A stretch of 64,000 nucleotides of DNA from Ignavibacteriota bacterium (GTDB lineage Bacteria > Bacteroidota > Ignavibacteria > UBA10030), in NCBI GenBank assembly GCA_963727825.1, contig CAVSHO010000011.1, forward strand, positions 384,001 to 448,000, read 5' to 3'. Of this stretch, positions 2,332-35,226 are shown piece by piece. Both the position numbers and the translations under genes were made by a program. Under the pieces are notes generated by a model, which was not told the DNA's origin, made no database searches, and saw only the letters and a list, made by a program, of their open reading frames with translations. The first letter of the stretch is position 1. Every line of letters starts with the position of its first letter.

Positions 2332-3073
2332 TTATACAAGCTTCGCTCGCAGAAATTCTCGATTCAATCGAGCAATATGCATTACTAATATTCCTTTCGG
2401 ACACTCGGCTTCGCAAGCATAATTATTCGAACAATTGCCGAATCCTTCCTTATCCATTTGCATTACCATTTTCTGAACGCGTTCTTTTCTTTCAATCTTG
2501 CCCTTGCGGAAGTAATGCAAATTGTGAAACCTTGGCAGCTACAAAAAGCATTGCAGAAGAATTTGGACACGCTGCAATGCATGCGCCACATCCGATGCAC
2601 GCTGCTGCATCCATCGCTTCTTCCGCATTCGCTTTCGGCACAGGAGTTGAATTCGCATCCGGTGCACCGCCGGTTCTTGCCGAAATAAATCCACCCGCTT
2701 GCATAATTCTATCCAATGCAGTTCGATCGACAACCAAATCTTTAATTACGGGGAACGGCTGCGCACGCCAAGGTTCTACAGTCAGGCTTTGCCCATCATC
2801 GAATGTCCGCATCCGCACATCGCACGTAGCTTGCTTGCGGCCTGGACCATGCGCACGCCCGTTGATCATGAGTCCACAGCTGCCGCATATACCTTCGCGG
2901 CAATCGTGATCGAAGGCAATAGGATCTTTATCTTGAAGTACTAATTGATTGTTCAACACATCCAGCATTTCTAAAAATGATGCATCAGGCGAAATATTCT
3001 CCACTTCGTACTTTTCAAAACGCCCTGCATCCTTTTGATTCTTCTGACGCCATATTTTTAATGTAAAATGCAT
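2332..3073 (-). CDS. sdhB: Succinate dehydrogenase/fumarate reductase Fe-S subunit, split by a +1 indel near 2501-2503 (probable sequencing error)
   Basis: [11 protein letters not shown] and [11 protein letters not shown] in ORF 2492..3088; [17 protein letters not shown] in ORF 2332..2520. Removing one G from a GGG run restores [10 protein letters not shown]. Confidence 0.9.
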
Positions 3074-3151
3074 GTCGTTATTCCTCATCCTTATCTCGAC
3101 AATACCATGGATTACCTTTGAATTCTGTTCTCGTCACCATCTTTTATTTCT

Positions 3152-3180
3152 GTCCCCCTCCAAGGGGGACTACAGGGGGT
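3152..3180. repeat. GC-rich palindrome at the 3' end of the DUF559 gene
   Basis: gtccccct-cca-agggggac (perfect 8-bp stem) followed by tacagggggt. Confidence 0.75.
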
Positions 3181-3562
3181 CCAAAGACTTGCCTGTTCGT
3201 ACTTTCACGTGTTCAAAGATATCCTGCATTACTCCATCTTCATTTTCAAAGATCTCATAATTAGAATATCGAATTACTTCACAACCAATTTTTCGCAAGT
3301 ATTCGTCCCTTTTAATATCACTTTGTGTCCCTCTGTTCGTATAGTGCTGACTTCCATCAAGTTCAATAATCAATTTCGCTTTTGCACAATAAAAGTCGAC
3401 AACATAACAACCGAAAGGAACTTGGCGACGAAATTTTACATCAAGTTGATGTCCTCTTAACAGAGACCATAATTTTCTTTCAGCATCAATCATTTGTTTT
3501 CGAAGCACTCTTGCAATTGGTACTAACGACTTAGAATATTGTGCAAGATGTTTCTTCATCAA
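3170..3562 (-). CDS. DUF559 / Vsr-like endonuclease domain protein
   Basis: ARVLRK..AERKLWSLLR, KFRRQ, YVVDFYC..KLIIELDGSQH, RDEYL..G..VIR motifs. Confidence 0.85.
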   Translation of the reverse strand: MMKKHLAQYSKSLVPIARVLRKQMIDAERKLWSLLRGHQLDVKFRRQVPFGCYVVDFYCAKAKLIIELDGSQHYTNRGTQSDIKRDEYLRKIGCEVIRYSNYEIFENEDGVMQDIFEHVKVRTGKSLDPL

Positions 3563-3625: not shown

Positions 3626-5545
3626 TCATTTATAACTCCGTTCAGAGGGTTTCACATATTCAAACGTGAGCGGTTCTTTATTGAGCTTAGGTTTCTTGTC
3701 AGCACCGGTATATTCCCACGCCGCCACATATGTAAATTTTTTATCATTGCGTAATGCTTCGCCTTCAGGTGTTTGATATTCTTCACGAAAGTGACCGCCG
3801 CATGATTCTTCCCGGTGTAGTGCGTCGAATGCCAGCAATTCTGCAAGTTCTAAAAAATCTGCAATACGCCCGGCCTTTTCTAATTCGATGTTAATATTAT
3901 CAGTCTCGCCGACAACTTTTGCATCACTCCAAAATTCTTTCCGTATTTCCGGAATTAGCTTTAACGCTTTCTTCAATCCTTTTTCGTTGCGTTCCATCCC
4001 GACAAAATCCCACATTACTTTGCCGAGTTTTTTATGAATTTCGCTCACAGGTTGTTTGCCATTGATAGCAAGAAGTTTACTCACTCTTTCAGCAACATCC
4101 ATCGTCACTTGCTTAAATTCCGGATGATCGGTTGCAAGAGAATTAAATTTCGTCTTTGCGAGATAATCTCCAATCGTGTACGGAAGGATGAAATAACCAT
4201 CGGCTAATCCTTGCATTAACGCACTGGCTCCAAGCCGGTTCGCGCCGTGATCAGAGAAGTTCGCTTCACCGATAACAAATAATCCTGGAATCGAGCTCAT
4301 CAAATTGTAGTCAACCCACAATCCGCCCATCGTATAGTGAACAGCGGGATAGATACGCATAGGGACAGCATAAGGATCTTCGTCAGTGATTTCGTGATAC
4401 ATATCAAAAAGGTTGCCGTATTTTTCTTCAATCCATTGTTTGCCATTTCGATTAATTGCTTCAGTGAAATCAAGATATACCGCCATCTTCGTTTTACCCA
4501 CGCCAAGACCTTTATCACATATTTCTTTTGCACGGCGCGAGGCTACGTCCCGCGGAACCAAATTGCCAAATGATGGATAGAGACGTTCGAGGTAATAGTC
4601 ACGTTCATTTTCCGGAATTTGAGATGGTATGCGCACATCACCTGATTTCTTCGGAACCCAAATGCGTCCATCATTGCGCAGGCTTTCGCTCATAAGCGTT
4701 AATTTGGATTGATAATCGCCGCTTACTGGAATGCAAGTCGGATGAATTTGTGTAAAGCAAGGATTTGCGAAGAGTGCGCCCTTCTTGTATGCTCGCCAGA
4801 TTGCAGTAGCATTACTCGCTTTTGCCATTGTCGAAAGATAAAAAGTGTTGCCATAACCGCCTGTCGCAAGCACAACTGCATCTGCAACGTAAGATTCGAT
4901 TGCACCTGTCTTTAAATTTCGACATACGATGCCGCGTGCCATTCCATCTACCACTACCAAATCCAACATCTCGCGCCGATCATAAAACTTTACACTACCC
5001 GCACTAATTTGACGGCTCAATGCAGAATATGCGCCAAGTAAAAGCTGCTGTCCGGTTTGGCCGCGAGCATAAAATGTTCTTGATACTTGAGCGCCGCCGA
5101 ATGAACGCGTGTCCAAATAACCTGCATAGTCACGGGCAAACGGAACACCTTGGGCAACGCATTGGTCTATAATACTGCCGCTCACCTCAGCGAGCCGGTA
5201 TACATTTGCTTCACGCGATCTGTAATCGCCGCCCTTTAATGTATCATAGAATAAACGATAGACACTGTCGCCATCGTTCGCATAATTCTTCGGTGCATTG
5301 ATGCCGCCTTGCGCTGCAATGCTGTGTGCCCGTCGTGGTGATTCGTGATATGAGAAAGTAAGCACTTGATAACCAAGCTCGGCAAGTGAAGCCGCCGCTG
5401 AAGCACCTGCCAAACCAGTTCCTACCACAATGATAGAATATTTTCGCCTGTTCGACGGATTAACCAGCTTCATATTGAAGCGATGATTGGACCATTTCTT
5501 TTCAATCGACCCGCTGGGAATTTTGGAATCAAGTGTCATAGTCAA
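3626..5545 (-). CDS. sdhA: Succinate dehydrogenase/fumarate reductase flavoprotein subunit (Bacteroidota-type)
   Basis: [59 protein letters not shown]. Confidence 0.95.
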
Positions 5546-6255
5546 TGAACTCCCATTATCACGGTAGATACAGCTTGATGATAAAAAAAGAAATAAACAG
5601 GAATTATCGCATAGCCTAACGGAATCAGGAACCAGAATATGAATGCCAGCATATCAAGAAACGGAGCATAGGTTTTATTCCGAAGCCCCAGCGTTTGAAA
5701 TGCCGATTGAAATCCATGCCGCAGATGATAACCGAGCACTAGCAAAGCAACAAGATAAAATGCATCGTACCAAGGATTTGAAAACGCTTGCACAACTAAT
5801 TCATAATTCGAGACTTTCCCTGAACCAAATCGAGAGGGGATAAAAAATGATTTCAGATGGATGTAGAGAAAAATGGCGATTATACTTCCCGTCCAGATTG
5901 TTATTCGGGATGCAAACGTTGCGTTATCTTTCAATCGGAAAAATTTATATTTGATAGGCCGCGTCATCCGGTTTTTAAACCAAAGAATAACACCAAGGAT
6001 AGCATGGCCGAACACACCAAGGAAGAGAAATATTTCTATGAAACGAATGACAGGATTGGAAACGAGAAAATCACCGTACGCTTCATACATTTTTCCGCCA
6101 TCATTCACAAACAGAAGAAGATTGCCGACGAGGTGCTCCACGAGAAAGACAATGAGAAACAATCCTGTAAGACTCATCAAAACTTTCTTGCCGATAGACG
6201 AGTAATAGAATTCAAGGACACTGTTCATAGATGGTGGCTCTGTGTGATTAGACAA
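5542..6255 (-). CDS. sdhC: Succinate dehydrogenase cytochrome b subunit
   Basis: [13 protein letters not shown], several TM helices, [14 protein letters not shown]; 4-nt overlap with sdhA. Confidence 0.9.
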
Positions 6256-6316
6256 CAGTTACATTGAGCAAGTTATTAATTCATATTTGCCTATTGAGAA
6301 TAAATCGACTCTTGTG

Positions 6317-6345
6317 AGTGTAGGGAAGATTTTTGGAAAATGCAA
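6317..6345 (-). promoter_or_regulatory. Putative sigma70 promoter of sdhCAB
   Basis: Minus strand TTGCAT-N17-TACACT. Confidence 0.5.
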
Positions 6346-6497
6346 CGGAATGGAAATGAATAGTGATCACTTCATACTTATCGACAAATTGATAAATTGC
6401 TGCATCTATTTGTCTATTTATAATGGCAAACGAATACGGCAAATTTGCCATTTATTCTGATGTATTGTCGCGCACTATCTCCGAAATGATGATCGAC

Positions 6498-6800
6498 ATT
6501 GTCGGAAAACCATCGGACATTGATGCGAAGTTGTTGGACATTGACCCAGAGTCACCAGACATCGATGCGAAGCTACCTGACGATGCTGCGGAGTAGTTTG
6601 ACAACCACGCGGAGTACTATGACAAAGAAGGAATGTCAGGTGAAAATGACGCGAAGTCAGTTTGGCTTGTCGCGGAGTAGTCTAACGATGTCGCGAAGCA
6701 GTTTGACGATCATGCGAAGCAGTTCGTCGCTATCGCGGAATAGTTTGGCAATACTGCGGAGTTGTTTGACGATGTTGCGGAGCAATTCGACGAGAAAGAA
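6498..6800. repeat. Degenerate 21-nt tandem repeat (about 14 units); open only in frame 6499..6843 (RSSLTML-like heptads)
   Basis: Recurring GCG(G/A)AG(T/C)AGTTTGAC core at 21-nt spacing. Confidence 0.75.
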
Positions 6801-6880
6801 ATGCCGAATACAGCAAGAAAACGGCTATTTACGTAATCAGTAAAGATTTTTCTCTTTAAGAATATTCAATTGAGCATCAC

Positions 6881-6957
6881 TCCCGCTTGAAGAACAGCGG
6901 GATTTCTCCGCTACAAAAATGGCGGACAAGTACTCAAATGACTTCGTCATTTGAGTA
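6881..6957. terminator. Three adjacent hairpins at the 3' end of the minus-strand operon
   Basis: tcccgct-N8-agcggga (6881-6902), tccgcta-N6-tggcgga (6907-6926), and perfect 12-bp stem tactcaaatgac-ttc-gtcatttgagta (6931-6957) overlapping the stop codon. Confidence 0.55.
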
Positions 6958-7597
6958 TCACCATTTTCTTCTGGAAGACGTTGTGATTGTTTTGATCATC
7001 CGTAGCTATGAGCCGGTAGATGTACATTCCACTTGCTAATCGTCCTGCGTTGAACGTCTTTTGATAGTAACCAGCAGGCTGAGATTCATCGGCAAGCGTC
7101 ATCACTTCACGACCCAGAATATCATAGATCTTCAAACTCACACGGCTATCTTTAGCTAACTCGTAGCTAATAATGGTAGTAGGATTGAACGGATTTGGAT
7201 AATTCTGATATAATGTATATGTTTGCGGTGCTGCAACTTTGATCGTGATATTCTTCGTCCACGTTTGCCCGTTAGCAGTGATTGAAAATGCGAGCGTCTG
7301 TGCTTTTCCTACCGGTGCTGATTTATCGACAGCAAAGGAAAACGTCGTCGCTTGTTCTGCATTTGCTGTGAGACTCTTGATCGTTTGTTGGGTGGTATCG
7401 AACTTCACCCAGCTTGGCGTATTGCCCACGGTAACACTTACAACCTGCGTTGCAATCTTAGATGTATTTGCAACCGTCAGTTCTATAGTATTGCCTTTTG
7501 ATGCAAACGGAATAGTATAAGTGCTATCAGTTTGAGCTGCGGCAATGTTTGCACAAAGGAACAATATTACACATAGTTTTTTCATATTTTTCCCCAT
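6947..7597 (-). CDS. Small T9SS cargo: signal peptide, one Ig-like domain, type A CTD
   Basis: MKKLCVILFLCANIAAAQ signal; LYQNYPNPFNPTT..KIYDILGREV..LASGMYIYRL..KKMVILK. Confidence 0.85.
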   Translation of the reverse strand: MGKNMKKLCVILFLCANIAAAQTDSTYTIPFASKGNTIELTVANTSKIATQVVSVTVGNTPSWVKFDTTQQTIKSLTANAEQATTFSFAVDKSAPVGKAQTLAFSITANGQTWTKNITIKVAAPQTYTLYQNYPNPFNPTTIISYELAKDSRVSLKIYDILGREVMTLADESQPAGYYQKTFNAGRLASGMYIYRLIATDDQNNHNVFQKKMVILK

Positions 7598-7603
7598 TTC
7601 GAT

Positions 7604-9970
7604 TTACTGAACCGGCAGTGTAATTGCTACTAAAGGATTAATGGAAACATCCTGTGTCACTGATTGCTGCTTTGTTCCATACACTGCACGGAACTGTATC
7701 TTTACAGGCAGTAATTCTATTGTCACAATACCGTTTATAGTTATACCTATTACTTTCCATCCACCTGCATTGTAACTTACAGTAGCATTATTCAATGGAC
7801 TACCAGATGAGTTGGTTACACTAACTGTACACAATACCGTTGAAAAGTTAATTGTAGCACTGGAATCCACATTCTGCGCTATACTGACAGAAGAACCATT
7901 ATAGGTCAGCTTGAATGTGTATTTCACAGGAAGTAGTTCTTTTGAAATAACACCATTTAACGTGCTTCCAAAATCTTTCCATCCTCCTGAGTTAAACTGC
8001 ACTATTCCGGTATCAATCGGATTTCCTTTGCTATTGTTGAATTGCACCAACGCTTTCACCGTTTGGAATATGACCGTTGCATTGGAATCGATGCTTTGTG
8101 CTTTACTGACTGTGGCGCCGTCATACGTTACACGGAACGTATACTTAGTTGGAAGCAGTTCTTTTGTTGTAATACCATTCGATGTTGTTCCGAAACTTCT
8201 CCATCCTCCAGAGTTATACTCCACGATTCCCGTGTCCAATAGAGCACCTGTGCTTGTTTGCAGTTGAACAATTGCAGGTATTGTGTGAAATACTACCGTT
8301 AAACTGGAATCAATGCTTTGCGCTTTGCTGATTGTTGCACCATTATACGCTATACGGAATGTATATTTTGTTGGAAGAAGTTCTTTCGTAACAACACCGT
8401 TCAAAGTCGTTCCAAAGTTTTTCCAACCGCCAGCATCAAATTGCACAACACCAGTATCTAAAGGAGTGCCAGTGCTTGTTTGTAGTTGCACATTCGCAGG
8501 AACTGTTTGGAATACAACCGTTGCATTTGAGTCGATGTTCTGCGTTTTGCTGACTGTAGGGCCGTTATATGTCAAGCGAAATGTATATTTTATCGGAAGC
8601 AGTTCTTTTGTCACAACACCATTTAATGTTGTTCCAAAATCTTGCCACCCGCCGGCGTTGTATTGTACAATTCCTGTATCTAATTGATTGCCTTGACTAT
8701 TTTGCAGATTAACAGCGACATTTTTTGTTTGGAAGATAATTGTTGTGTCATTCTTAATCGTGACATTTGATTTTGTTTGTGTTCCGTATGCATACGTCAT
8801 CCGCAGTGAGAGTTTTTTCTTGGTTGTATTGATTGTAAACGTGCCGTCGTTGTTATTAGTGGCGTTTTCCCAAATACTATCGCGATATTGGAGCGTGCCA
8901 GTTGTAAGCAGAGAGCCAATACTCGATAGAAGTTTCACTGTGCAAGTATCGGAACCTAATTGAGAAAGATCAATATTGATGGAACGTTTCTTATATGGCA
9001 AATAGTAGTACATCATATTGGGGTAATTATCGAATATCATAATCTGACCATCTGGAGGCAATGACAACTTACCCACAAGTTTTCCCGTCGTTGCTTGAAA
9101 AATAGAAATTTTACCTCCCAACGTATTCGAAGGATTTCTAAGATTAGGATCTATAAACGGTGGATTTTCATTTATTATCACATATTGTGCATCCCCTGAT
9201 AGAAAAGCTTCAGAAATAATTGGAAAATGAATAGGCGTATAAAACGTATCCTTCATTGCATCGTAGAGAAGATATTGCGTATCTACAGAATCTCCACCAG
9301 ATAAATCATATCCAAAAAGTGCTTTCCCTTTTCTTCGATCATGTATAATTTTTACTTGTGCTGGCGGTCCAATTTGATCAATAAGCTTTCGAGAAATGAT
9401 TTTCTTACTCAACAAAGAGAAACCAGTTAAACTGGATTTGCGAGCAACCGGGTCAGTTTGTCTGCAATAAAGAATGGTACCATCCTCTGAAGAAAATGTG
9501 TTTTCCCAAATTGAATATGTATGAATGTCGAAGCTGTCAATCTTAGATAGTGAAATATCATCATAAACATAAGTATTGCTTTCACTCGAGATATAGACTC
9601 GATGCAATTGAGGACTATACTTTACCCCCGTTGTATATTTCACTTCACATTCGGGGAGTTCTTTCACTAACGAGGGATTATTTGTGTTAATAATGGTAAC
9701 TCGTCCTTCATAAGGATCATTCCCATTCCAATAATACAACCAGGTTTGTGTATTATCCCATTCTAATTTGCTTGTACCCACCTGTGGTGCAGAAAAAAAC
9801 AATTCTTTCGCGCCTGTTAGGAAATTTATACGAAATATATCACCAAGATTAGTTGTGTCATTACGATACCATTGATAATAATAATAAGGCTGTGCATTCA
9901 GAGTCATTCCAAAACAGAAAATTGATATAACTAGAAGTGATAAATAATATTTAAATAATAATTGTTTCAT
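7604..9970 (-). CDS. Secreted protein: N-terminal beta-propeller-like region plus six ~74-aa Ig-like repeats
   Basis: Signal peptide ending LNA-Q; repeats DTGIVQYNAGGWxDFGTTLNGVVTKELLPxKYTFR at 222-nt period (~7610-8950). Confidence 0.75.
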   Translation of the reverse strand: MKQLLFKYYLSLLVISIFCFGMTLNAQPYYYYQWYRNDTTNLGDIFRINFLTGAKELFFSAPQVGTSKLEWDNTQTWLYYWNGNDPYEGRVTIINTNNPSLVKELPECEVKYTTGVKYSPQLHRVYISSESNTYVYDDISLSKIDSFDIHTYSIWENTFSSEDGTILYCRQTDPVARKSSLTGFSLLSKKIISRKLIDQIGPPAQVKIIHDRRKGKALFGYDLSGGDSVDTQYLLYDAMKDTFYTPIHFPIISEAFLSGDAQYVIINENPPFIDPNLRNPSNTLGGKISIFQATTGKLVGKLSLPPDGQIMIFDNYPNMMYYYLPYKKRSINIDLSQLGSDTCTVKLLSSIGSLLTTGTLQYRDSIWENATNNNDGTFTINTTKKKLSLRMTYAYGTQTKSNVTIKNDTTIIFQTKNVAVNLQNSQGNQLDTGIVQYNAGGWQDFGTTLNGVVTKELLPIKYTFRLTYNGPTVSKTQNIDSNATVVFQTVPANVQLQTSTGTPLDTGVVQFDAGGWKNFGTTLNGVVTKELLPTKYTFRIAYNGATISKAQSIDSSLTVVFHTIPAIVQLQTSTGALLDTGIVEYNSGGWRSFGTTSNGITTKELLPTKYTFRVTYDGATVSKAQSIDSNATVIFQTVKALVQFNNSKGNPIDTGIVQFNSGGWKDFGSTLNGVISKELLPVKYTFKLTYNGSSVSIAQNVDSSATINFSTVLCTVSVTNSSGSPLNNATVSYNAGGWKVIGITINGIVTIELLPVKIQFRAVYGTKQQSVTQDVSINPLVAITLPVQ

Positions 9971-9987
9971 AGTTTTACTCCGTTATT

Positions 9988-12882
9988 TTATTCACAGGGT
10001 CCTTGGCCATGGTAATAATCCATACATCGTATCGAATATTCGCCAAATATATTTGTTGTTCTGTCCAATTTGTTTGGATCTTTAATCCATTTCCCGGGAC
10101 CTAATGGTTTGTCTATATAATCTGGCACCCATCTCCAATAGACACCGCCGTTGTATCTTTGAAAGATTTCCTGAATTCTTTGTTCTTCGGTTAATGGTGT
10201 TGGGTTCATTGGTATTTGTGTAACACTGTCTATAGGATCTGCATAATAATATTGAGGGACAGGTTGTGAAGGCCAACAATTTCCATTTTTAATTGCAGTG
10301 ATATATGCTTCAACATATTTTTTCTTGTCACTGAATATTCCAATGCCTCCAGCGATATTCATTTTCCAATTCCAAATTAAATCATCTTTAGCAGGATTGT
10401 GAATTTGCATTATCCCAAAATCATTGGGATCACCTTGATTAGTTTTACTATTCCATCCTTGTAGAGGCATTCCCGAGCTTGTTACAAATTGTTTGAATCC
10501 GCTCTCTAAATAATATGAAAGAATTTGCAACATTTTTATATCGATCGCATCACAATTCGCGCCAGTCGCTGCTACTGATATTTCTGCACAGACATCACTT
10601 TTCTCAGGATTTTTCCCTTTAATTACGAAGGGATTCGTAAGAGTTTTTGGGCCATACGTTTTTCCATCTGCATCCGTTGCTTGCACATCAATCGTCATAT
10701 CGTCACCGCCGCGAATATAGCCGTCGGGTAATGTAAAAGGTATTTCAACTACACCACTGCCGGTATTATTTCCTTCAAAATGTCCTGTTGTTATTCTATG
10801 CGGATCCGGGCCAAGAGCAGTCCATTGTAATTTTGTGAAGGTAACTTTAAAAGAAGCATCTTTATCATAATTTTTAAGCTGTGCTTTTATGATCAAATCA
10901 GGCATTTTTGGGACTGGGTCAATTTGTTTCAATTCTTTTGCATTGTCTTTCGGAGAAATCACTACTAAATCTGGTCCTTCTATCGTCAATGTTGCAGATT
11001 CATTGCATGAAGCACCTTCTGCCAAATCCTGTACCATTGTATACAACTTCTTTGCCAAGACAGCATCGCCTTTCCCTGCCCTCTGTGTTTTAATTCCATC
11101 TGTAATAGCGTTCATCAACGCTTGTTTCTTTGCAACCTTTTGTGCAAATATAATCTTCTCTGCCGCCAGTTTCTTTGTAATAGATTCTTGTGGCGAAACG
11201 AGAACTTTTTTTGTTCCATTTAGGTTTATAATAGGTTTTTTTTCAATTGGCGTTATCTGTTTCTCCAGCATTAATCCTGCATACCTCTTAAGCGTATCTT
11301 TTTCTTGCCCGACATTAATCGAACAGGCAACTCCACTAACTGGAATTACAGTAATATTAACGACAATTGAGTCCACATCTATACTATCGGCAGCTATAAA
11401 CTCAAACGGCTGTGTCCCGGAAATACTTGTCCCTGAACTACCTTTACAGTGCAGTTTTCCATACCGTGCATCGGCATCCATTGAAGCAACAAATATTTGA
11501 CCTGAGGGATATGGAAAAACTCCTTGCTCCGTTTGTGCCATCACACTGATGGTTGTTTTGTTACCTGGAGATATCTCTGATTTCGATAAAGATACAACTA
11601 GACAGGCGGGCTCTACGTCAATATTACACCAACCGTTCCGTTCAGGAAATTCTGTTCGACACACGATTATCTGTGCGTTATTTTCATCGACAAGGTCCAT
11701 TATATCAAGCTTGCTATAGTATTTTACACTACCGCTCTTTGCCTGATTATAGGTAACAGTTACCTGAGTCGGTATTGTATCTGAACCGACAATAAAACTT
11801 CCCGTGTTGGATCCATCGGAAAATGTTATGCTCTTTTCCCCATCCAATGCTACTTCGTTATCATTGATATCTTTGGCAATAGCACGAACGTTCACAGACT
11901 GTCCGGCGTATATCGTGTCTAAGTCCGGTGTTACGGTAAAATGATTAGGAAGAGCTTTTATTAGCTGTATCGTTTTTACTGCCGAAACGCCGTATGCCTC
12001 TGCCCGTATGGATACATTTTCTATCATTTCCGAAGGACCACTCCCATCCCATTCGAAGAAAATACTGGTGGGACCTTCAAGGGGAACCACAATAGAAACG
12101 TCTCCAATAATACTGGATCCATCGGTGTTCCACCCTCTGAGTCTCATACCGCTTGATGGATTTTCAATCGTGAATGTCATCCTCATAGGAGATGTATATT
12201 GCTGATCAATTATAAACGGGTTTCCAGAACCGTTATACAAGAATGCGGTAATGTACGATTGATAGATTTCGTCGTAATCGAAAGATTCTAAAGATGGTGG
12301 AGATGCGATCAAACTACAACTATCGAGTTCATACGCTGACAAGGGTATGACATTGACAGTTGCCGATGCGACAGTTGCTGTTCCTGCAGTCCATGTATAA
12401 TTGACTTGATTATCGGACACTAATCCTACCGACAATGGTGCACTACCACAACCATTAAATAAGTCAACATTAACTAGATAGCCCCCTTGAACTTCAAAGT
12501 TTGCCACTGAGTCGTATATAGAAGTCTTCCAAATCGAATAGAGATTGTGCTCTCACCAGTCATTATTCCAGCCTTCCCCCGATATCGACATCACAGCGTA
12601 ACTTAATCCACCACCAGCCCATTGATAGTTGATGTTGCCAAAAGCATTGATTTGGCATGGACGAGTGGTCCTTATACGAGACCATATGGTATCTATGTAC
12701 AGCAGTGGTATTGTAGAATTTGTCATTGAGTTTAAATTCATTTGTTTCAAAATTTTTGTTCTTGGCGAAATCGAAATCTTTTCATGTATTTTTATCTGTG
12801 CGATAAGCACAGCAATAGAAAGCAGGGAAAGAATTGCAAGAATCGAAAGTCTGCGTAGAATTAAAAAGGTAGTTACTTTCAT
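9988..12882 (-). CDS. Large secreted protein (964 codons) with C-terminal lytic-transglycosylase/lysozyme-like domain; one in-frame TGA at 12553-12555
   Basis: ORFs 12553..12882 and 9988..12507 share a frame (..GWNNDW*EHNLYSIWKTSIYDSVANFEV..). N-terminal signal peptide; C-terminal LES, GIMQI and RYNGG motifs. Confidence 0.7.
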
Positions 12883-12961
12883 ATCGCCTCTCAGTTAAGT
12901 GAAAGCTTGTGGTGCTTATAGTGTAGCTTAATGAAAAACAATAAATCAGAAGTGTGTTTGT

Positions 12962-12990
12962 ATTATACTAAAGTGTTTTAATGCTGTCAA
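12962..12990 (-). promoter_or_regulatory. Consensus sigma70 promoter of the three-gene operon
   Basis: Minus strand TTGACA-N17-TATAAT, about 80 nt upstream of ATG 12882, which has a GAGAGG RBS. Confidence 0.8.
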
Positions 12991-13095
12991 CAATATTTTA
13001 CCGGAAATCAACACATTTTTTGCTACAAGCAACTTGTTAAAATACGACAAGGTTCTCGGGAACTTTTTCAGAAATATGCATCTGCAATTTATCCG

Positions 13096-13419
13096 GTTGC
13101 CAACTCCCGACTAATGCCTCCTGTCATATGTTGACGCGTTTTGGGAGAACATTTATCCGCCGTCTGTGTGGCGGGCTTCTCAGCCGTGTGTGCTTTTTGC
13201 CTGCTCGTAGCAGGCGGGAACTCTGCAACTTTAATTACCATCATTGATTGATACGATGTTGTTCGTGGTACAACTCACTCACAACTGAAAAATGAGCCTT
13301 TAGCTGGGAGGGAGTTGCACTCCCGACCAATAACCTCCCCCCATATGTTGACGCGTTTCGGGAGAATATCTCCCTTACAACAAAGACAACCAGTTGGACA
13401 CACAATTGTGTGTCCCTAC
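13096..13419. repeat. Cluster of REP-like palindromes plus a ~58-nt direct repeat
   Basis: actcccgac..catatgttgacgcgttt(t/c)gggagaa at 13096-13154 and 13314-13370; palindromes ccgcc-N8-ggcgg, gcctgc-N5-gcaggc, gggag-ttgca-ctccc; GTAG-type ggacacacaattgtgtgtccctac ending 13419. Confidence 0.75.
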
Positions 13420-13429
13420 GAATTCATCT

Positions 13430-13458
13430 TTGACTTTGCGCGTATATTTGGATAGATT
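13430..13458 (+). promoter_or_regulatory. Putative sigma70 promoter of hit-icd
   Basis: TTGACT-N17-TAGATT. Confidence 0.5.
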
Positions 13459-13480
13459 TTCTACAAGAGAAAAAAAATCT

Positions 13481-13906
13481 ATGACTGAATGTATTTTCTG
13501 CAAAATTGTTTCCAAAGAAATTCCATCGGAAGTCCTGTATGAGAACGAAGATGTTATTGCTGTTCTCGACATCAATCCAATTCATTTTGGACATGCCCTA
13601 ATTATACCGAAACAGCATTGCGACGATTTTCTAGACCTGCCGGATGGAGCGTATCATTCAATACTTCAAGCAGCTAAAATTGTCACAAAGGCATTGGTTC
13701 AGAGTCTAAAGCTTGAAGGATATAATCTTTTTTCCAATAACGGAAGAATTGCAGGACAATCCGTGTTTCACTTTCACCTCCATATCACACCGCGATATCG
13801 TGATGACAATATTAGATTCCTTCTCAATCTTAAAAAATATTCCGATGGCGAAATGAAAAGGTACGGTACGATGATTCGAAAATTTATCAAACCAACAACA
13901 TTATAG
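13481..13906 (+). CDS. HIT family nucleotide hydrolase
   Basis: CIFCKI..GHALIIPKQH..AGQSVFHFHLHI histidine triad; start set to ATG 13481. Confidence 0.9.
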   Translation: MTECIFCKIVSKEIPSEVLYENEDVIAVLDINPIHFGHALIIPKQHCDDFLDLPDGAYHSILQAAKIVTKALVQSLKLEGYNLFSNNGRIAGQSVFHFHLHITPRYRDDNIRFLLNLKKYSDGEMKRYGTMIRKFIKPTTL

Positions 13907-13922
13907 AAGATTACGAAAATAG

Positions 13923-15170
13923 ATGGCACAATACATTAAGCTAACACCGCCAGCCGCAGGACAACCAATACGATTTGTTAATGGCAAACTCGACGTTCCG
14001 GATTTACCCATCATCCCATTTATTGAAGGCGACGGTACAGGACCGGATATCTGGCACGCATCACAACGTGTATTCGATGCTGCCGTTGCGAAAGCATACA
14101 GCGGGAAGAAAAAGATAATTTGGTTTGAAGTATTCGCCGGCGAAAAAGCGAACGAAGTATATGGCCCAAACACCTGGCTCCATGATGATACACTCGTCGC
14201 CATCAAAGAGTACATTGTTGCAATCAAGGGACCCCTGACAACGCCAATCGGCGGCGGCATTCGTTCTATCAATGTCTCATTGCGGCAAATGCTGGATCTA
14301 TACGTATGTTTGCGGCCTGTTCAATATTTTGCCGGAGTGCCATCGCCGGTGAAACATCCGGAATTAATCGATATGGTCATCTTCCGCGAAAACACAGAAG
14401 ATATTTACGCAGGCATCGAATGGAAAGCCGGAACACCGGAGGCGAAAAAAATCGTGGCATGGCTGCAAAAAGAAATGGGTGTGAAGAAGATTCGATTTCC
14501 CGAAACTTCCAGCATCGGTATTAAACCGGTCTCCGAGGAAGGAACTAAACGGTTAGTTCGCGCAGCGATTCAATATGCCATCACTCATAAGCGTAAATCT
14601 GTGACGTTAGTGCACAAGGGCAATATTATGAAATTCACAGAAGGCAGCTTCCGGGATTGGGGCTATGAACTTGCGCAAAAAGAATTTGGCGGTACGCTCA
14701 TCGATGGCGGTCCATGGGTAAAACTCCCGAACGGAATTATCATTAAGGATGTTATCGCGGATGCATTCCTTCAACAAATTCTCACGCGTCCCAATGAATA
14801 CGATATCATCGCTACACTCAATCTTAATGGCGATTATATTTCTGACGCGCTTGCCGCGCAAGTCGGCGGCATAGGTATTGCACCCGGCGGCAATATCAAT
14901 TATGAAAACGGCTTTGCAGTCTTCGAAGCAACTCATGGAACTGCCCCAAAGTACGCTAACCAGGATAAAGTGAATCCCGGCTCTGTCATTCTCTCCGGCG
15001 AAATGATGCTGCGTTATATGGGTTGGAATGAAGCCGCCGATCTCATCATCAAGGGACTCAATAAAAGCATTCAGGCAAAAACTGTCACGTACGACTTTGC
15101 CCGACTGATGGATGGAGCAAAGGAAGTGAAATGTTCAGAGTTTGGCGATGCTATAATTAGGAATATGTAA
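13923..15170 (+). CDS. icd: NADP-dependent isocitrate dehydrogenase
   Basis: [56 protein letters not shown]. Confidence 0.95.
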
Positions 15171-16417: not shown

Positions 16418-16672
16418 GTGTACTCCATCGTTTTCACATCTTCTGCGTCCAAGGATATTATTTCTCTTCCAATTATTGTTCAAAGAAGATGCGAAATCTT
16501 AATTGGTCGATTTACATACCACCCTAAACCAGATGGTTGTAAAAAATTAAAGGGGTTGGATAATACATGGAGAATCCGTATTGGAAACTACAGAATTTTA
16601 TACGGCATTGATGACATTTACAAGATACTAACGATTTACAGAATTCTTCACCGTAAAGAAGCATACAGATGA
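16418..16672 (+). CDS. RelE/ParE family toxin
   Basis: [28 protein letters not shown]. Confidence 0.85.
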
Positions 16673-19463
16673 CATCAGCTGAAATCCGAAACAGTTTCTT
16701 AAAATATTTTGAAGAACGCGGTCACACAATTATTCCAAGTTCACCTGTTGTTCCTTATGACGATCCAACACTTCTATTCGCAAATGCTGGAATGAATCAA
16801 TTCAAGGATGTATTCCTTGGCACCGGCAGGCGAACGTACAAACGCGTGGTAAATACACAAAAGTGTATCCGTGTCAGCGGGAAACACAACGACCTTGAAG
16901 AAGTCGGACGCGATACATACCACCACACTTTTTTCGAAATGCTTGGCAACTGGTCGTTCGGCGACTATTATAAAAAGGAAGCTATCACGTGGGCGTGGGA
17001 ATTGTTGACAAAAATCTGGGGACTGCCCAAGAATCGCCTCTGGGCAACAATTTATAAAGATGACGAGGAAGCTGAGCAATTTTGGAAAACTCTCACTGAC
17101 ATAGACCCGAGCCATATTTTACGATTTGGTGAAAAAGATAATTTTTGGGAAATGGGTGAAGCCGGGCCGTGCGGGCCGTGCTCTGAAATACACATTGACC
17201 GCACACAAAACGGAACTGCAACTGCAGAAATGGTGAATGCCGGAATACCGGAAGTGATGGAGATTTGGAATCTCGTCTTTATCCAATACAATCGTGATGA
17301 AACCGGCAAAGCTTACTCCCCTGCCAGCAAAACACGTTGACACCGGAATGGGTTTCGAGCGCGTCTGCGCAGTACTACAAGGAAAGAATTCCAATTACGA
17401 TACCGATGTTTTTACTCCGATCATCAATAAAATTAGTGAGATAACAAAACAGCAATATAGTGGCAATATTCAATCTGCAATCGACAATCGTCCCGACAAA
17501 AAGAGTCGGGATGCACAAAACGCACAATCGGAAATCGATACATCTATGCGCGTCATTGCTGATCACGTGCGCACACTGACTTTCGCGATTGGCGATGGTG
17601 CTCTGCCGAGCAACGAAGGACGCGGATATGTTCTTCGCCGAATTTTACGCCGCGCTGCCCGTTTCGGGCGCAATCTTGACATGCACGAGCCGTTCATTTA
17701 TCAGCTTGTACCTACTCTTGTTGAGACAATGAGTTACATCTTCCCGGAAATCAAAACACAGCAAGAACACATTCAAAAAGTGATCAAAGGTGAAGAAGAA
17801 AGCTTTCAATTCAACATTGGATAATGGATTAAAAATCTTCGAAGAGCTTATTACAAAGCCTGAAACGCAGACTTCAAAAGCAATTTTCGGTGAAGACGCA
17901 TTTCAAGCTCTATGACACATTTGGCTTCCCACTCGACCTCACGGAATTAATGGCAAGCGAGCATGGACTAAAAGTTGACGTGGAGACTTTTAATAAATTG
18001 ATGGAAGAGCAAAAAGAGCGGTCTCGAACAGGTTCGGCAAATTTAAAAATTCCGATGCAAATATTAAGCGCGACTGGAACATATATACCACCTGAGAAGA
18101 CTTTATTCTTAGGATATTCTTGAAACAAAACTCAATTCTACAGTATTAGCTAATGGAGTACTTTCTAATGGTCTTCAGTGGATTGCTCTCCGTAAAACCC
18201 CATTTTATTCGGAAAGTGGTGGACAGGTAGGGGATACTGGATTTAATCATTGCGGATGGAATCCAATATAAAGTGATTGACACAAGAAGAGAACAAGGCA
18301 TTTACGCGCACATAACAAAAGGTAATCTTCTTGACATCAAAAATAAAATCGTTACAGCAGAAATTGATTTGGAACGCCGCCTTTCCATCCAACGCAATCA
18401 CTCAGCTACGCATTTGCTTCACAATGCACTGCGTAGGATTCTTGGAACGCACGTGCATCAAGCCGGATCGCTCGTTGCACCGGATTATTTGCGATTCGAC
18501 TTCGCGCACTTTGCCAAGTTAAGTGATCAGGAACTTGCCGACATTGAAGCGTTAGTAAACGAGAAGATCAAAAAAAATATTCCGCGCACTCCCGGATTAA
18601 ATAATATTCCTTTCGAAGATGCTAAGAAGATGGGCGCATTAATGTTCTTCGGCGATAAATATGGAGAGCGCGTAAATGTGATTCAGTTTGGAGATTTCAG
18701 TACAGAATTTTGCGGTGGCACGCACGTGAACAACACCGGCGAAATCGGCTATTTCAAAATTTGCGAAGAGAGCAGCGTTGCAAGCGGCACAAGGCGTATC
18801 GTTGCGGTAACGGGCTCGTATGCACTTGATTATCTAAACGAACAAGAGCATGATTTCAAATCTGTATATAATTCTGCATTTAACCGCATTGAGGAAATAT
18901 TCAAACCACAAATTAAAGATCTTAAAGAGCTTCCGCCCATTCCGAATCAGGCTTCGCCAGAATTAGCCGGTTATTTTGCTCAGTTATACAAAAACAAAAT
19001 AATTTTAAAAAACGTTATTGAACAAGACAACGAGGAAAAGAAGAAGCTGGAAAAAGAACGTGCGAAATCCCGACTGCAATCGTTTTCCGGTTCAATGGAT
19101 GAATTGATTACATCTGCTGTTTCAATTGGGAACATCAAGATGGTCGCAGCAAAAGTCTCTGCTACTTCGATAGATGAATTAAAAAACCTTGGCGACTCGC
19201 TTCGTGCAAAACTTGGCAGCGGTGTTGGATTGTTAGCTGCCGTTATTGAAGATAAAGTCCAGTTTGTCTGCGTCGTTACAGATGATCTCGTCGCTGCAAA
19301 AAAGATTGAAGCCGGGAAAGTTGTCGGTGCAATCGCTAAATTAGTTGGCGGCGGCGGCGGCGGACGTCCGCACATGGCAACTGCCGGCGGCAAGGATGTA
19401 TTAAAATTAGATGAAGCATTAGCACAAACAAAATCGGTTGTGGAATCTCTTTTACGAAAGTGA
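16669..19463 (+). CDS. alaS: Alanine--tRNA ligase, split by five +1 homopolymer indels (probable sequencing errors)
   Basis: [84 protein letters not shown]. Extra bases near 17309, 17805, 17902, 18121, 18243. Confidence 0.95.
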
Positions 19464-31325: not shown

Positions 31326-34300
31326 TCAGTCGTCCATGAAATCTCTTTTCTTTTCCCACTCCATTTGTCTTCTCAAGCTTGAAATATGTTTTTCAATCAA
31401 CTGTTTGTGTTCAAGAAGATCAGACTTATTGAAAATTAACAAGAGAGATTCAAAATAGTCAATCTCCTCTTTAAGAACGGGGACATGGCTTCCACTCCAT
31501 GACTTGATACTTGGTTCTAACGAAAGTTTCTCGAAATCCTTGAATCTTTTATTGAATGCAACAAAAAGAGTTATGTACCTTTTTCGTCTCTCCGGTTCAA
31601 ATGAGGCAATTACAAGAAAGATCAATTTCATTACTGCAGAATTTTGATTTTGCTTTTCTATAAGGTCTCCAATGAATTTGTCCTGCCTTTCCTTTATCAA
31701 CTCCATATCCCGTGCATCTTGTCGAAGTACAAAAAAAGTTTCTAGATACGAATCGAATATCATTTCCCTTCTTAGCTCAATCGCAAGGACACAATCCACG
31801 ATTCGAGTTATAACCTTTTCAAAGTCGTTTCGTCGCCACAAAAACGAATAATCATGTGAATCATCGTGTTTACTTAAACATTCCTTTTTATTGTACATCC
31901 AGTGTATATAATCAATCATTATACTGGAGTCGACATCAAGAATCTTGTTGATTGTCGTCCCGTTATAATCTGCATCTGGGTCCACTTCAAGCACACAGAA
32001 GAAAGCCTCCTTTAACAGATCAAAGTGATCTTGATATATTTCAATAATTTTCTTGTTGACTTCTAAGTACGAATTAAAGAGAAGAGAGAGACAAAACCCG
32101 AATCGACGATCTTTTCTCGACTTACGAAGTACCACTCTCGTTATGCGGATAAACAAATGCTTATCAAATTCCCAATACTTGAGTAAGTAATCCAAGTGAT
32201 GAGGTGGTTCATCTCGCATCGCTCTTTTGTATAATCGATAGACCTGTTTTGCCCTACTTCTTGTAACTTCGCTAGGAGGGATCGTTTGGTAGTATGCAAA
32301 CAACCACTTGCGTTGAGTTGAATATGGTACTTTTCGACGAATCCAGAGTACTAAAAGTAATGCAAATCTAACAACTGCATTTGCATTACTAATTGGTAAT
32401 CTAAGAATAGCAAGGACACCGGTCGTATCAAGCACTTTGAAAAGTCTATCCACCAAAACAGGTGAATCCAGGGCGAAGGGGTCACCGTTTGTCAGGTAAT
32501 ATTGAATAACATTTTTATATAGTTCCAAATCACGCTCAGCAAAAGAAATGAGAACTTCGGTAACACCTTCTTTAAATTGGAATTCTCTATTGGTCCCCTT
32601 AACTGTAGCCCATATTTGACTACAACTATCAAAGAATTGCTTATAATCGATCATGATAAATTTGCTAAAATGCTCAGCAATTCGATGCAGTTTCAATTTC
32701 TTGTATTCTTCATATTCCAGATTTAGGTTTCTCATCTCGATATGATCGTCGAAGAGGATCTTAGTCAGTTCGTGAGTTTTATTTGTGAATGTAGATCTCA
32801 GCTTCTGATCGAAGGACACTTTATGATTCTCAAAAAGATCAAGTAGATTGTGGACTAACACACAATCCAAATAGTTATCTGGGTTAAGTTTTGAGACCAC
32901 AAATTGAATTATTTCAGTCGAATCCTTTTCGACAATCTCATCGACAGAAATGGAGTACCCCGAAGAGCTATAATGTTTGAGAGTAATAAGGACTTGAGCA
33001 CGAAGTTCAGGAATGTTGTAAAGTTCGAATAAGTTTTTCCAAATTTCACATCTTAATTCATTGAGTGCAGGCGTTAGCGGTAGTTGAAAATCGATGATAT
33101 TGACTGCGTAGCGATCTGTAGACTCTACTGTATGAAATCGTGTTTGAAGATAATTGGTATATAGGAGGAACTGTAGTTTCGTGAGTATTAAATCTGTGCT
33201 TTTATGTGTTCTCTCCCACAAAGTCTCTACGACGGTTCTCTGCATATAGAAATCACGTAAGTACGACTTTTGTTGAAATCCAAATGCCTCGGTTAATATG
33301 TAATATACTTTTGGCAGGTCAGCAGGACGTTTCTGAAGATAGTCGTAGATAAGAGCCAAGGCAACTTTTAGGTTTTCTTCGCCTGACTGGTTGAACTTTT
33401 TTAGAACACTTAATATTGAAGGCGAATGTATATTTGAGTCTGGCTTGATTTCGTCGTCAGATTGCGGTGTTGCGTCTGGCTCTAAGTTTGATATCGATTC
33501 TTTGATGCAAACAAGAACATCCGTTTCTTTTGCAAACCAGAAAGCCTCACAAAGAGATAGAATCAATTCAGTATTCCCGACAGCATAAAAGTTGTCCCAA
33601 ACGCGATCGATATCTTTTCGCACTTTGTTCATAAGTTGATCGCTATAGAATGCATTCAATACGGGATAGAAGGAGTCATAAAGACGTTCTTTGTGCTTAG
33701 GGAAGTAAGTTATTAAGAGGTCTGCGAAACTCAACGCCCTTTGTTTGAAGAAGCAGAGATAGAATATATACGTCGCAAGAACTTGATCGGAGAAGCGAAC
33801 AACTTCGTTCTCCCATAAGTCAAGAATCTCTGTTTCATGAAGTCTCACCGCATAGTTCCAAAAGGAGTCCTTAGAAAAACCAAATGAAGTTTCAATCGAC
33901 TTCATCATTTCTTGATTGGTTTTATCAATAGATCGAAAGAAAGCCACCAATCCTGCTACGCCTACGATTGAACTGTCGCCAAGATCCTCGATGTCCTTTC
34001 GGATAGAACTGAAGTACTCGTCATAGAGACCAGAAACATCCGTGATGCTATCTAGCCTATTCTCATGACTGGCAACTCTGCCAGCCATAATTGCCAATCG
34101 TGGATTTCCTTTAGCTATATTAGCGATTCGATCAAGATATAGATGATTTTTGATGCCGCACTCATCTTCTACTAATTGTTTGATTTGATCCTTTTCAAAG
34201 TTAGGCAATTCTTTGTACTCGCTACAGCCGTAGACTTTAGAAGCATTTCTCACCTTATTTGCGGCATAATCACGTGTTGTCGCAATCAGTTTAATCCTTC

Positions 34301-35156
34301 TATTTTCGTTCTGCTGATGTAGTAATTGAAGTATATAGTCAAACTTATTAATGCGGTTTGCATCATCCACGAAGATTAGGTAGCATCCTGGTTCAGAGAA
34401 ATGGACTTGAAGGTCGGTGAAGAGATCTGGGCCTCGATTGAAGATACAATACGCGTGGAACTCAGATTGTTCTTTTAGAAACTCTCTACAACATTCGATT
34501 GCAAATCGGGATTTACCCACCCCTGCTTTGCCACCAATGATGACAAGATCACTCGATTTGAGGAGTTTAACTGCTTCTTTAAGCTCATTCTGCCGAAAAT
34601 GGAAAGCAGTATCAAGAGGAGTTGCAAGAACGTTTTTGTTATAAGCTGAAACAAACTCATCAAGGTCTACAATCTGACCAGTGTCTACATCGATCTCAAG
34701 AAATTCTTTTGCAAGTCCAGGATACTTGAAAAGAATGTCATATGAGATGCGACTGGTTTCGAACAGATTGAGGTTGACTTGGTTCTTTTGACATTGTTCT
34801 CGTAGACTATCTATTTCCGATGTATTAAGTGGCGCTGTAAAGCAAAAGACTACTTCAGCTATCTTTGAGATGGAGATACCTGTTTTCGCATCATTAAAGC
34901 ACTTTGTTAAATCGTTGTTTAATTTCTCGTAAAGATTGGTCTGTTGTGTTGTATGTTCAGCAAATATATACTTACCGTTCGGGAGGGATATTAATGTGTC
35001 CGGCGTACTTTTTCGAACCTTGTCCGCTCCGATAAAGGAACCGAGAGAATTTAACTGCTCGTACCCTTTTTTGTAAAGATATGCGTCTGCGAACTTCTGG
35101 AAAGCTGCATCGCCTAACTCAAGTAACTTTTTTTGAATCTGGTTGAGTCTTGACAT
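31326..35156 (-). CDS. Putative restriction-endonuclease-fold plus STAND NTPase protein (anti-phage candidate)
   Basis: N-terminal FQKFADAYL..GY..TPD..FAEHT; Walker A GKAGVGKS; Walker B LIFVDD; ATTR; AKGNPRLA (GxP); long helical C terminus. Confidence 0.7.
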   Translation of the reverse strand: MSRLNQIQKKLLELGDAAFQKFADAYLYKKGYEQLNSLGSFIGADKVRKSTPDTLISLPNGKYIFAEHTTQQTNLYEKLNNDLTKCFNDAKTGISISKIAEVVFCFTAPLNTSEIDSLREQCQKNQVNLNLFETSRISYDILFKYPGLAKEFLEIDVDTGQIVDLDEFVSAYNKNVLATPLDTAFHFRQNELKEAVKLLKSSDLVIIGGKAGVGKSRFAIECCREFLKEQSEFHAYCIFNRGPDLFTDLQVHFSEPGCYLIFVDDANRINKFDYILQLLHQQNENRRIKLIATTRDYAANKVRNASKVYGCSEYKELPNFEKDQIKQLVEDECGIKNHLYLDRIANIAKGNPRLAIMAGRVASHENRLDSITDVSGLYDEYFSSIRKDIEDLGDSSIVGVAGLVAFFRSIDKTNQEMMKSIETSFGFSKDSFWNYAVRLHETEILDLWENEVVRFSDQVLATYIFYLCFFKQRALSFADLLITYFPKHKERLYDSFYPVLNAFYSDQLMNKVRKDIDRVWDNFYAVGNTELILSLCEAFWFAKETDVLVCIKESISNLEPDATPQSDDEIKPDSNIHSPSILSVLKKFNQSGEENLKVALALIYDYLQKRPADLPKVYYILTEAFGFQQKSYLRDFYMQRTVVETLWERTHKSTDLILTKLQFLLYTNYLQTRFHTVESTDRYAVNIIDFQLPLTPALNELRCEIWKNLFELYNIPELRAQVLITLKHYSSSGYSISVDEIVEKDSTEIIQFVVSKLNPDNYLDCVLVHNLLDLFENHKVSFDQKLRSTFTNKTHELTKILFDDHIEMRNLNLEYEEYKKLKLHRIAEHFSKFIMIDYKQFFDSCSQIWATVKGTNREFQFKEGVTEVLISFAERDLELYKNVIQYYLTNGDPFALDSPVLVDRLFKVLDTTGVLAILRLPISNANAVVRFALLLVLWIRRKVPYSTQRKWLFAYYQTIPPSEVTRSRAKQVYRLYKRAMRDEPPHHLDYLLKYWEFDKHLFIRITRVVLRKSRKDRRFGFCLSLLFNSYLEVNKKIIEIYQDHFDLLKEAFFCVLEVDPDADYNGTTINKILDVDSSIMIDYIHWMYNKKECLSKHDDSHDYSFLWRRNDFEKVITRIVDCVLAIELRREMIFDSYLETFFVLRQDARDMELIKERQDKFIGDLIEKQNQNSAVMKLIFLVIASFEPERRKRYITLFVAFNKRFKDFEKLSLEPSIKSWSGSHVPVLKEEIDYFESLLLIFNKSDLLEHKQLIEKHISSLRRQMEWEKKRDFMDD

Positions 35157-35226
35157 AATTCAATAATGGAGATTTAGTTTATCCAACATAACGGTAAGGG
35201 AATGACACTTCCAACCAATCGTCTCA

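Follow-up and report, generated by a model that had tools for sequence, protein, structure and literature searches.

The window analysed here is a 64,000-nt (64-kb) stretch of DNA from an Ignavibacteriota bacterium (assembly GCA_963727825.1, contig CAVSHO010000011.1, positions 384,001 to 448,000), and the subject of this report is a block of three minus-strand genes within it, designated A, B, and C. Gene A encodes a modular protein with a lysozyme-like C-terminal tip, gene B a beta-propeller followed by immunoglobulin-like (Ig-like) repeats, and gene C a small protein with the C-terminal domain (CTD) of type IX secretion system (T9SS) substrates. The sequence-only reading, an earlier interpretation of the same DNA, had described three co-oriented genes with gaps of 6-17 nt. 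This description agrees with the three minus-strand open reading frames (ORFs) found here: the stop codon of A and the ATG of B are 17 nt apart, with GGAG inside, and the stop codon of B and the ATG of C are 6 nt apart. A second ATG of C (7585, Met5) corresponds to the start of the orthologue in a related locus (L001); with this start, the B-C gap would become 18 nt, not 6. The three genes and the regions of A are as follows.

12553..12882, minus strand: N-terminal piece of gene A, 109 codons, encoding a signal peptide and, behind it, the conserved strand QIKIHEKISISP; ends in TGA 12553-12555
12757..12798, minus strand: conserved strand motif at the N terminus of A-family proteins (residues 29-42), then a Ser/Asn-rich linker
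9988..12552, minus strand: main body of gene A, an open frame from TGA to TAA; the listed ORF, 9988-12507, begins at a GTG and has 839 aa
11203..11982, minus strand: conserved beta-rich core of A, residues 301-560; Ig-like only as judged from the sequence pattern
11005..11202, minus strand: helical linker of A, ending in the junction ...MVQDLAEGASC, behind which the tips diverge
10633..11004, minus strand: pre-tip beta domain of A, residues 627-750, ending in NPFVIKGKNP
9991..10632, minus strand: C-terminal GH23-like (SLT/goose-lysozyme-like) domain of A, the last ~210 residues
7604-9970, minus strand: gene B, 788 aa
6947..7597, minus strand: gene C, 216 aa; signal peptide, small beta domain, T9SS type A CTD

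Read through the TGA at 12553-12555, gene A comprises 964 codons, which makes its product large and not the "giant" protein it had been called. Its regions run in the order signal peptide, conserved strand, hypervariable region, beta-rich core, Gly-rich/helical linker with a conserved ...EG..C junction at its end, and exchangeable C-terminal cassette. Neither piece of A matched any Pfam or NCBIfam family. Members of the A family (given here by P numbers) were collected from two homologue searches, which yielded 16 and 15 matches, and from three genomic loci (L001-L003). Residues Q29, I32, and I38 of the N-terminal strand are invariant in alignments of 11 and of 16 members, and the motif Q-[IV]-K-I-K-E-R-V-E-I occurs in 16 of the 163 proteins checked, all with an A-family N terminus and with any tip. 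The core also has invariant columns in the alignments and is closest, at 64% identity, to the cores of P0001, P0003, P0004, P0007, and L001. No second copy of any A segment and no paralogue of A or B is present in the 64-kb window, and a search of a phage collection gave no match. Judged from these sequences, A belongs to what appears to be an undescribed family of predicted Sec-exported modular proteins, so far found in Ignavibacteriota-like metagenome-assembled genomes (MAGs) and in metagenomes.

The TGA is in frame with the 839-codon ORF and splits the signal-peptide part from the body of A. It had been overlooked in the sequence-only reading, which treated the large protein as one open frame; the N terminus quoted there lies on the separate 109-codon ORF. 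The same qualification applies to the claim of three Sec-type signal peptides: all three were recognized when judged by eye, and that of A lies on the separate ORF. In A, B, and C alike, a Gln follows the predicted cleavage site, a feature shared with the Q-rule of Bacteroidetes, by which Gln follows signal-peptide cleavage, as stated in PMC5837995.

The position of the TGA is open in 10 of 10 aligned homologues, and the closest of them, P0004, has a Ser there. Recoding of TGA was ruled out, since TGA is the terminator of 21 of the 38 long ORFs in the window. The TGA after codon 109 either reflects an error in the sequence or is a mutation that inactivates A. If it is real, the module would be a decaying remnant in this genome, with A lacking its signal peptide or not made, and with B and C alone functional, if anything. 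We regard this as possible but the less likely case. An in-frame stop where every aligned homologue stays open, the normal use of TGA as a stop in the window, and the lack of a visible ribosome-binding site at GTG 12507 (the start of the 839-aa ORF) all agree with it, whereas the rest of the frame, 855 codons between the TGA and the final stop, contains no further stops or frameshifts, and the TGA is one base away from the Ser codon suggested by P0004. Moreover, two other genes of the window are broken. The alaS gene (16657-19463), which is essential and should be intact, is spread over at least five frames (16657-17340, 17258-17824, 17833-18123, 18113-18271, and 18231-19463), and sdhB (2332-3133) is frameshifted, with its Fer2_3 part at 2492-3133 and its C-terminal Fe-S part at 2332-2538 in another frame. 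These breaks suggest that the sequence is error-prone or the genome decaying, and the TGA in A may thus be a sequence error. Decay would in any case concern the state of this copy and is compatible with any functional reading of the family.

The tip of A carries the motifs LES, GIMQI, and RYNGG, exactly as had been claimed, and the codon of the putative catalytic Glu in LES is at 10504-10506. In an alignment of 12 tips, E65-S66 of the 236-aa tip segment (codons 10506-10501) are invariant in all 12 and align with the ES of EtgA; G95 and Y182-N183 are likewise invariant, and M97 and Q98 are retained in 90% or more. Although a PDB sequence search with the window tip alone gave 0 matches, all six PDB matches of the profile built from the 12 tips were GH23 proteins (EtgA, 0.027; goose-type lysozymes, 0.035-1.2), with the ES and GIMQ motifs lined up. 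The AlphaFold2 (AF2) model of the tip reached a predicted local distance difference test score (pLDDT) of 81.8 and a predicted template-modelling score (pTM) of 0.78, and all matches listed by Foldseek belong to the lysozyme superfamily, headed by MltF (probability 0.99), with g-type lysozymes, MltC, and human lysozyme after it. Sub-threshold matches to Pfam SLT were obtained for P0001, P0005, P0037, P0050, and P0101; relatives score 15.2-20.3 bits against PF01464, below its cut-off of 21.3 in every member scanned. Compared with the GH23 lytic transglycosylases and goose-type lysozymes (EtgA, MltF, MltC), the tip has ES, GxMQ, and YN in the same order and identity but contains large insertions between the motifs. 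The earlier assignment of the tip to lysozyme/SLT-like enzymes thus found support in the invariant motifs, the PDB profile matches, the model, and the Foldseek matches, and we conclude that it is a divergent GH23-like domain, a putative transglycosylase or hydrolase.

Other family members carry other tips. Among the 20 readable tips, 12 are lysozyme-like and eight are not, although they follow the same junction; two truncated proteins (P0011 and P0181) and one chimera (P0015) were kept outside this count. Five of the 20 (P0004, P0007, P0180, P0182, and P0183) have an HExxH motif, P0009 shows a weak Peptidase_C39_2 match (E 0.0035), and P0014 and P0016 end in what we take to be the signature of LAS/M74-like endopeptidases (Pfam E 0.018 for P0016). 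No Pfam or NCBIfam family was matched by P0180-P0183 or P0015, and an ESM Atlas search with the P0007 tip gave only unnamed clusters (0.88) and DUF922 (0.80), which is chance level. The clearest case of exchange is the pair of P0006, with a lysozyme tip, and P0183, with an HExxH tip: they share 96% identity over 436 scaffold residues and are unrelated past the junction. The protein of the window is itself a mosaic. Its beta-plus-lysozyme cassette is closest to P0002 (85%/58%), P0006 (65%/61%), and P0012 (54%/51%), although the cores of these three share no more than 33-50% identity with that of the window, while its pre-tip beta domain, 85% identical to that of P0002, is only 30-38% identical to those of members sharing its core. 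The P0006/P0183 pair and these mosaic affinities are what tip exchange would leave behind. Together with the eight non-lysozyme tips, they bear out the expectation that homologues would differ in their tips, and the alignments indicate that tip exchange on a constant scaffold is real. In this respect, A resembles the polymorphic toxins as defined in PMC3482391, in which diverse C-terminal domains are attached, at a conserved junction, to an N-terminal scaffold that is likewise conserved; the definition there also includes a cognate downstream immunity gene, orphan tip cassettes, and toxicity to competitors.

P0015, a metagenomic protein of 527 aa, joins an unrelated N-terminal part of 460 aa to a 61-residue stretch with 97% identity to the helical linker of A (11002-11184), and it ends just after the ...EGASC junction. 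Either it is an assembly chimera, or recombination at the tip junction produced it in some close relative.

The tip domain also occurs far outside the A family. An exhaustive profile search returned 1602 cluster representatives at E<=1e-3 (515 at E<=1e-10), in which the domain is almost always C-terminal, and 95 of 100 scanned representatives match no Pfam family at all. A pattern search found the ES, GxMQ, and YN motifs all present in 100 of 146 representatives; 93 of the 146 also have the preceding beta domain, and 24 have the core of A. Compared with GH23/SLT, the family adds a WNW..N...G segment, a Y-W-x-W-V segment, and the preceding NPF-I-G-NP linker. Such sequence characters set the tip domain apart as an unannotated family of its own, with no fewer than 1602 cluster representatives.

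Searching plasmids with the tip domain by tblastn gave four Burkholderia records. In all three annotated loci, a 331-332-aa tip-family protein is encoded directly behind a VgrG gene of a type VI secretion system (T6SS), and it is followed by a 178-199-aa protein with a signal peptide. The comparison of the Burkholderia protein with the tip profile by hhalign gave a probability of 98.7 (E 1.9e-16). These tip-family proteins are annotated as hypothetical (WP_230943711 and WP_084910744) and are not mentioned in the literature searched, and the Burkholderia pair has no Pfam or NCBIfam family. VgrG, effector, and immunity gene form the classical T6SS gene order, and T6SS cargo muramidase effectors of the Tge/Tse3 type are encoded behind VgrG. 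This layout of the Burkholderia loci argues that the tip-domain family may be used as an antibacterial effector. The VgrG-linked proteins share with A the C-terminal domain family, including a short beta segment and the I-x-G-x-NP linker, but they lack a signal peptide, whereas A would be exported by Sec on a scaffold of ~750 residues. Furthermore, the VgrG loci include a small candidate immunity gene with a periplasmic product, which the A-B-C block lacks; the small Burkholderia proteins are unrelated to B or C.

The domains of B and C are as follows.

8951..9892, minus strand: seven-bladed beta-propeller of gene B, residues 27-340 (signal peptide at 9893-9970)
7604..8950, minus strand: C-terminal array of gene B; ~6-7 putatively Ig-like or TIG-like units of ~72 aa each, seen in the translation
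6959-7201, minus strand: CTD of gene C, residues 133-213; the beta domain before it (residues ~22-125) has a weak NEW3/CARDB-like match

The AF2 model of the B propeller (pLDDT 82.1, pTM 0.79) had as its top Foldseek matches 1l0q (an archaeal S-layer protein with a YVTN propeller and PKD, 6.7e-10), Lp49 of Leptospira, and YncE of E. coli; the ESM Atlas gave only propeller leads below 0.9. Like these proteins, B is predicted to have a seven-bladed propeller, and tandem Ig-like repeats follow it as in 1l0q, but the propeller is only 12-16% identical to theirs, with TM-scores near 0.5, and the B repeats are not PKD by Pfam. The resemblance does not allow a function to be carried over to B. TIG matches were detected in 3 of 19 members of the B family. 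In C, the CTD exceeds both curated cut-offs, with PF18962 (Por_Secre_tail) at 8.7e-10 and 39.2 bits (cut-off 27) and TIGR04183 at 6.9e-10 and 38.8 bits (cut-off 23). The claim that only the smallest protein has a T9SS CTD is therefore correct, as the Pfam and TIGR04183 matches occur in C and none occur in A or B. C has the signal peptide and CTD of T9SS type A cargo, but its passenger is a single beta domain of ~100 residues, not an enzyme.

Gene order was examined in L001-L003, all of them MAGs, two labelled Ignavibacteriae or Ignavibacteriaceae and one Bacteroidetes. A is followed by B in 3/3 loci (B identity 33-41%), and C, 84% identical, is kept in L001, the only locus long enough to be evaluated; the other two contigs end inside B. 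Homologues thus keep the proposed order as far as their contigs reach. The genes flanking the A-B block differ in every locus, and no synteny was found between the flanks in the window and those of L001-L003, which indicates that the A-B-C block moves as a unit. The nonsynonymous divergence (dN) between the window and L001 is 0.50 for A, 0.51 for B, and 0.086 for C, and the synonymous divergence (dS) is 1.09, 2.5, and 0.61, respectively. With both dN and dS of A and B above those of C, the alleles of A and B seem to be much older or faster evolving than C.

In the sequence-only reading, A was a wall-lytic toxin exported or displayed through C, and B was the partner that binds the lysozyme tip and neutralizes A in the periplasm of the producer. 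B does follow A directly in 3/3 loci, the four known A-B pairs (the window and L001-L003) all have lysozyme-like tips, and B has a signal peptide, so that it would meet A in the periplasm. The propeller is also the most variable part of B (29-37% identity, versus 54-82% for the repeats; the window repeats are 54-57% identical to those of L001-L003). In T6SS and type IV secretion systems, peptidoglycan hydrolases can be countered by beta-propeller-like immunity proteins. However, the parts of the four pairs do not vary together. Their cores group {window, L001} and {L002, L003}, their beta domains group {window, L002}, and their propellers group {L001, L002}, at 60% identity, while the lysozyme tips are all 29-36% identical; the L001 and L002 tips share 36% identity and belong to different subtypes. 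The joint variation of tip and partner N-terminal region that had been anticipated was thus absent across the four pairs, although six pairwise comparisons are a weak test and the downstream gene is always B. In addition, a 788-aa protein made of a propeller and a repeat stalk resembles a surface-layer protein (1l0q), not a compact inhibitor, and the genes behind the VgrG-linked members of the tip family code for small proteins that show no relation to B. These observations speak against B as the neutralizing partner, and none of them supports it as an immunity protein, a role that we consider improbable, as we do the whole scheme of a toxin neutralized by B and exported or displayed through C.

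The reading that we put forward instead is that A is a polymorphic cell-wall-degrading effector directed against other bacteria, its tip cassette consisting of the beta domain and the GH23-like domain. B, as a propeller on an Ig-like repeat stalk, and C would form a structural, targeting, or display platform and would not confer immunity. C would be the only part with a recognizable route across the outer membrane, and a T9SS would be involved through C alone. We hold this reading to be about evenly balanced between true and false. Export by a T9SS by way of C is what we infer only from the adjacency of the genes and the CTD of C. PMC5837995 notes possible T9SSs in Ignavibacteriae.

The three genes might encode no weapon but an envelope or nutritional complex, in which A would either remodel peptidoglycan to make way for an envelope structure, in the manner of EtgA, VirB1, and FlgJ, or act at the surface to digest wall debris for food, with B and C as scaffold. 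Such a role would suit the best PDB profile match, EtgA, which is a lytic transglycosylase associated with a secretion system, and a block surrounded by housekeeping genes, without mobile-element genes in its vicinity and without an immunity-like gene. It would also suit tips that are all hydrolase-like where recognizable, without nucleases or deaminases, and the other CTD-bearing hydrolase-like proteins that the window encodes. It fits poorly, however, with the swapping of unrelated enzyme classes as tips on nearly identical scaffolds, with a mosaic A that has a hypervariable N-terminal region, with dN values of ~0.5 for A and B versus 0.086 for C, with the different genomic site of the block in each genome, and with tip-domain relatives behind VgrG genes. 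Because tip swaps, mosaicism, variable sites, and VgrG-linked relatives are typical of conflict loci and not of housekeeping enzymes, we consider a non-weapon role rather unlikely, if somewhat more credible than immunity by B.

Several results weigh against the effector reading. The linkage of A and B rests on three genomic loci, all with lysozyme-like tips. Neither A nor B has a CTD by Pfam and NCBIfam, and no T9SS core gene was found in the 64-kb window. No small immunity-like gene is present in the block, which is unusual for a wall hydrolase that transits the periplasm, and orphan tip cassettes, another feature of polymorphic toxins, were not found for A within the 64-kb window. The best Foldseek E-value of the A tip is 0.06, with none reaching 1e-3 and TM-scores of 0.26-0.38, and the tip has no Pfam SLT match even at E 0.1. 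The non-lysozyme tips were named only from sub-threshold Pfam matches and short motifs, and PDB sequence searches with four members bearing other tips gave antibody or unrelated matches at chance level. Finally, A is interrupted by the in-frame TGA in this copy.

Among published concepts, the nearest is that of the TANFOR polymorphic toxins in Bacteroidetes. As described in PMC7073777, these are large proteins with a Sec signal peptide, no CTD, and swappable tips, peptidoglycan hydrolases among them; beside their genes, those of T9SS substrates with a CTD are enriched, and their export by a T9SS is only hypothesized. A is alike in each of these points, having a predicted Sec signal peptide, no CTD, swappable tips, and a neighbouring CTD gene, with T9SS export equally hypothetical. 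The differences are as clear. A lacks a TANFOR domain (0 NCBIfam families at E 0.1, TIGR02542 being assumed to be in the library) and has no Fn3. For the TANFOR toxins shown in PMC7073777, the immunity genes are small and lie downstream, and most tips are nucleases, whereas the invariable neighbours of A are the 788-aa propeller/repeat protein and the minimal CTD protein, and its recognizable tips are all hydrolase-like. TANFOR toxins belong to Bacteroidetes, while the relatives of A come from Ignavibacteriota-like MAGs and one MAG labelled Bacteroidetes. The literature searched, with supplements outside its scope, contains no description of the A family or of the three-gene layout. The sequence-only reading knew of no described system with this layout; these searches agree with it for the family, but the layout has a partial precedent in the TANFOR toxins (PMC7073777). 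If the effector reading holds, the A family would be a new polymorphic-effector scaffold specialized in wall-degrading tips in a poorly studied phylum, and its tip would define a lysozyme-like domain family that is large, lacks a Pfam model, and is also used behind T6SS VgrG genes. The block would also offer a compact three-gene test case for the T9SS export of CTD-less toxins and for a role of T9SS in interbacterial competition, the question raised by TANFOR toxins.

A more specific and, in our view, speculative version is that the strictly conserved N-terminal strand of A, which signal-peptide cleavage would expose and a flexible Ser/Asn linker follows, docks into the equally conserved beta domain of C, so that a CTD-less, tip-swappable hydrolase would piggy-back on the T9SS and be displayed with B as stalk and target-binding propeller. 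In a three-chain complex prediction (B 27-788 and C 22-130, with A 29-75 as the partner), the median was 0.52. Two controls with the partner replaced gave 0.00, but the control with B replaced also gave 0.52, leaving the prediction short of the required margin; it speaks neither for nor against binding. We consider docking of this kind improbable; if true, it would be a new adaptor-mediated T9SS export route and, outside Bacteroidota proper, a contact-dependent antibacterial weapon of a new class.

The remaining features around the block are as follows.

12962..12990, minus strand: putative sigma-70-type promoter match TTGACA-17-TATAAT upstream of gene A, 12/12 positions
6855..6946, minus strand: two stem-loops 3' of gene C, -31.1 kcal/mol, z -3.75
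6490-6813: degenerate 21-nt direct-repeat array between sdhC and gene C (Tandem Repeats Finder: 7 copies, 6646-6793, 67% matches)
13117-13152 and 13334-13369: 36-nt two-copy repeat, 86% identical, 217 nt apart

The perfect TTGACA-N17-TATAAT promoter that had been pointed out is indeed present at 12990-12962, and among 33 promoter-like sites in 6200-13450 it alone scores 12/12. Terminal hairpins had also been proposed. Stable stem-loops do exist after C, but they have no U-tract and are not listed by the terminator scan, and they are hence not a canonical intrinsic terminator. As had been stated, the block lies between sdhCAB and hit-icd, with sdhC (5542-6255), sdhA, and sdhB on one side and the HIT-icd pair (13394-15170) on the other; a DUF559 endonuclease-like gene (3170-3562) is situated between sdhA and sdhB. 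Both repeat clusters expected at the two sides of the block were recovered as the 21-nt array and the 36-nt repeat. The array contains no convincing ORF and has no Rfam match, and an Rfam scan of 6200-13500 gave no match. The two copies of the 36-nt repeat fall within the 400 nt that separate the promoter of A from the divergent HIT gene.

Elsewhere in the window, a further cluster of secreted-protein genes occupies 44692-50943. A tblastn search with C detected CTD-like stretches there at 46473-46826, 47827-48090, 49302-49499, and 50644-50940, and Pfam confirmed Por_Secre_tail in a BNR/sortilin-like ORF (46825-48090) and a transglutaminase-like ORF (49630-50940). In L001, a T9SS_plug_1st protein is encoded at 17868-19157, ~2 kb downstream of the A-B-C block, indicating that the carrier genome has T9SS parts. 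The window also encodes an nSTAND3 NTPase of 1277 aa and two adenylate/guanylate-cyclase fusions, one with PD40 propeller repeats and the other with an AAA_16 ATPase (31329-35159, 41948-44293, and 51110-53950), which may be signalling or defence genes unrelated to A-B-C.

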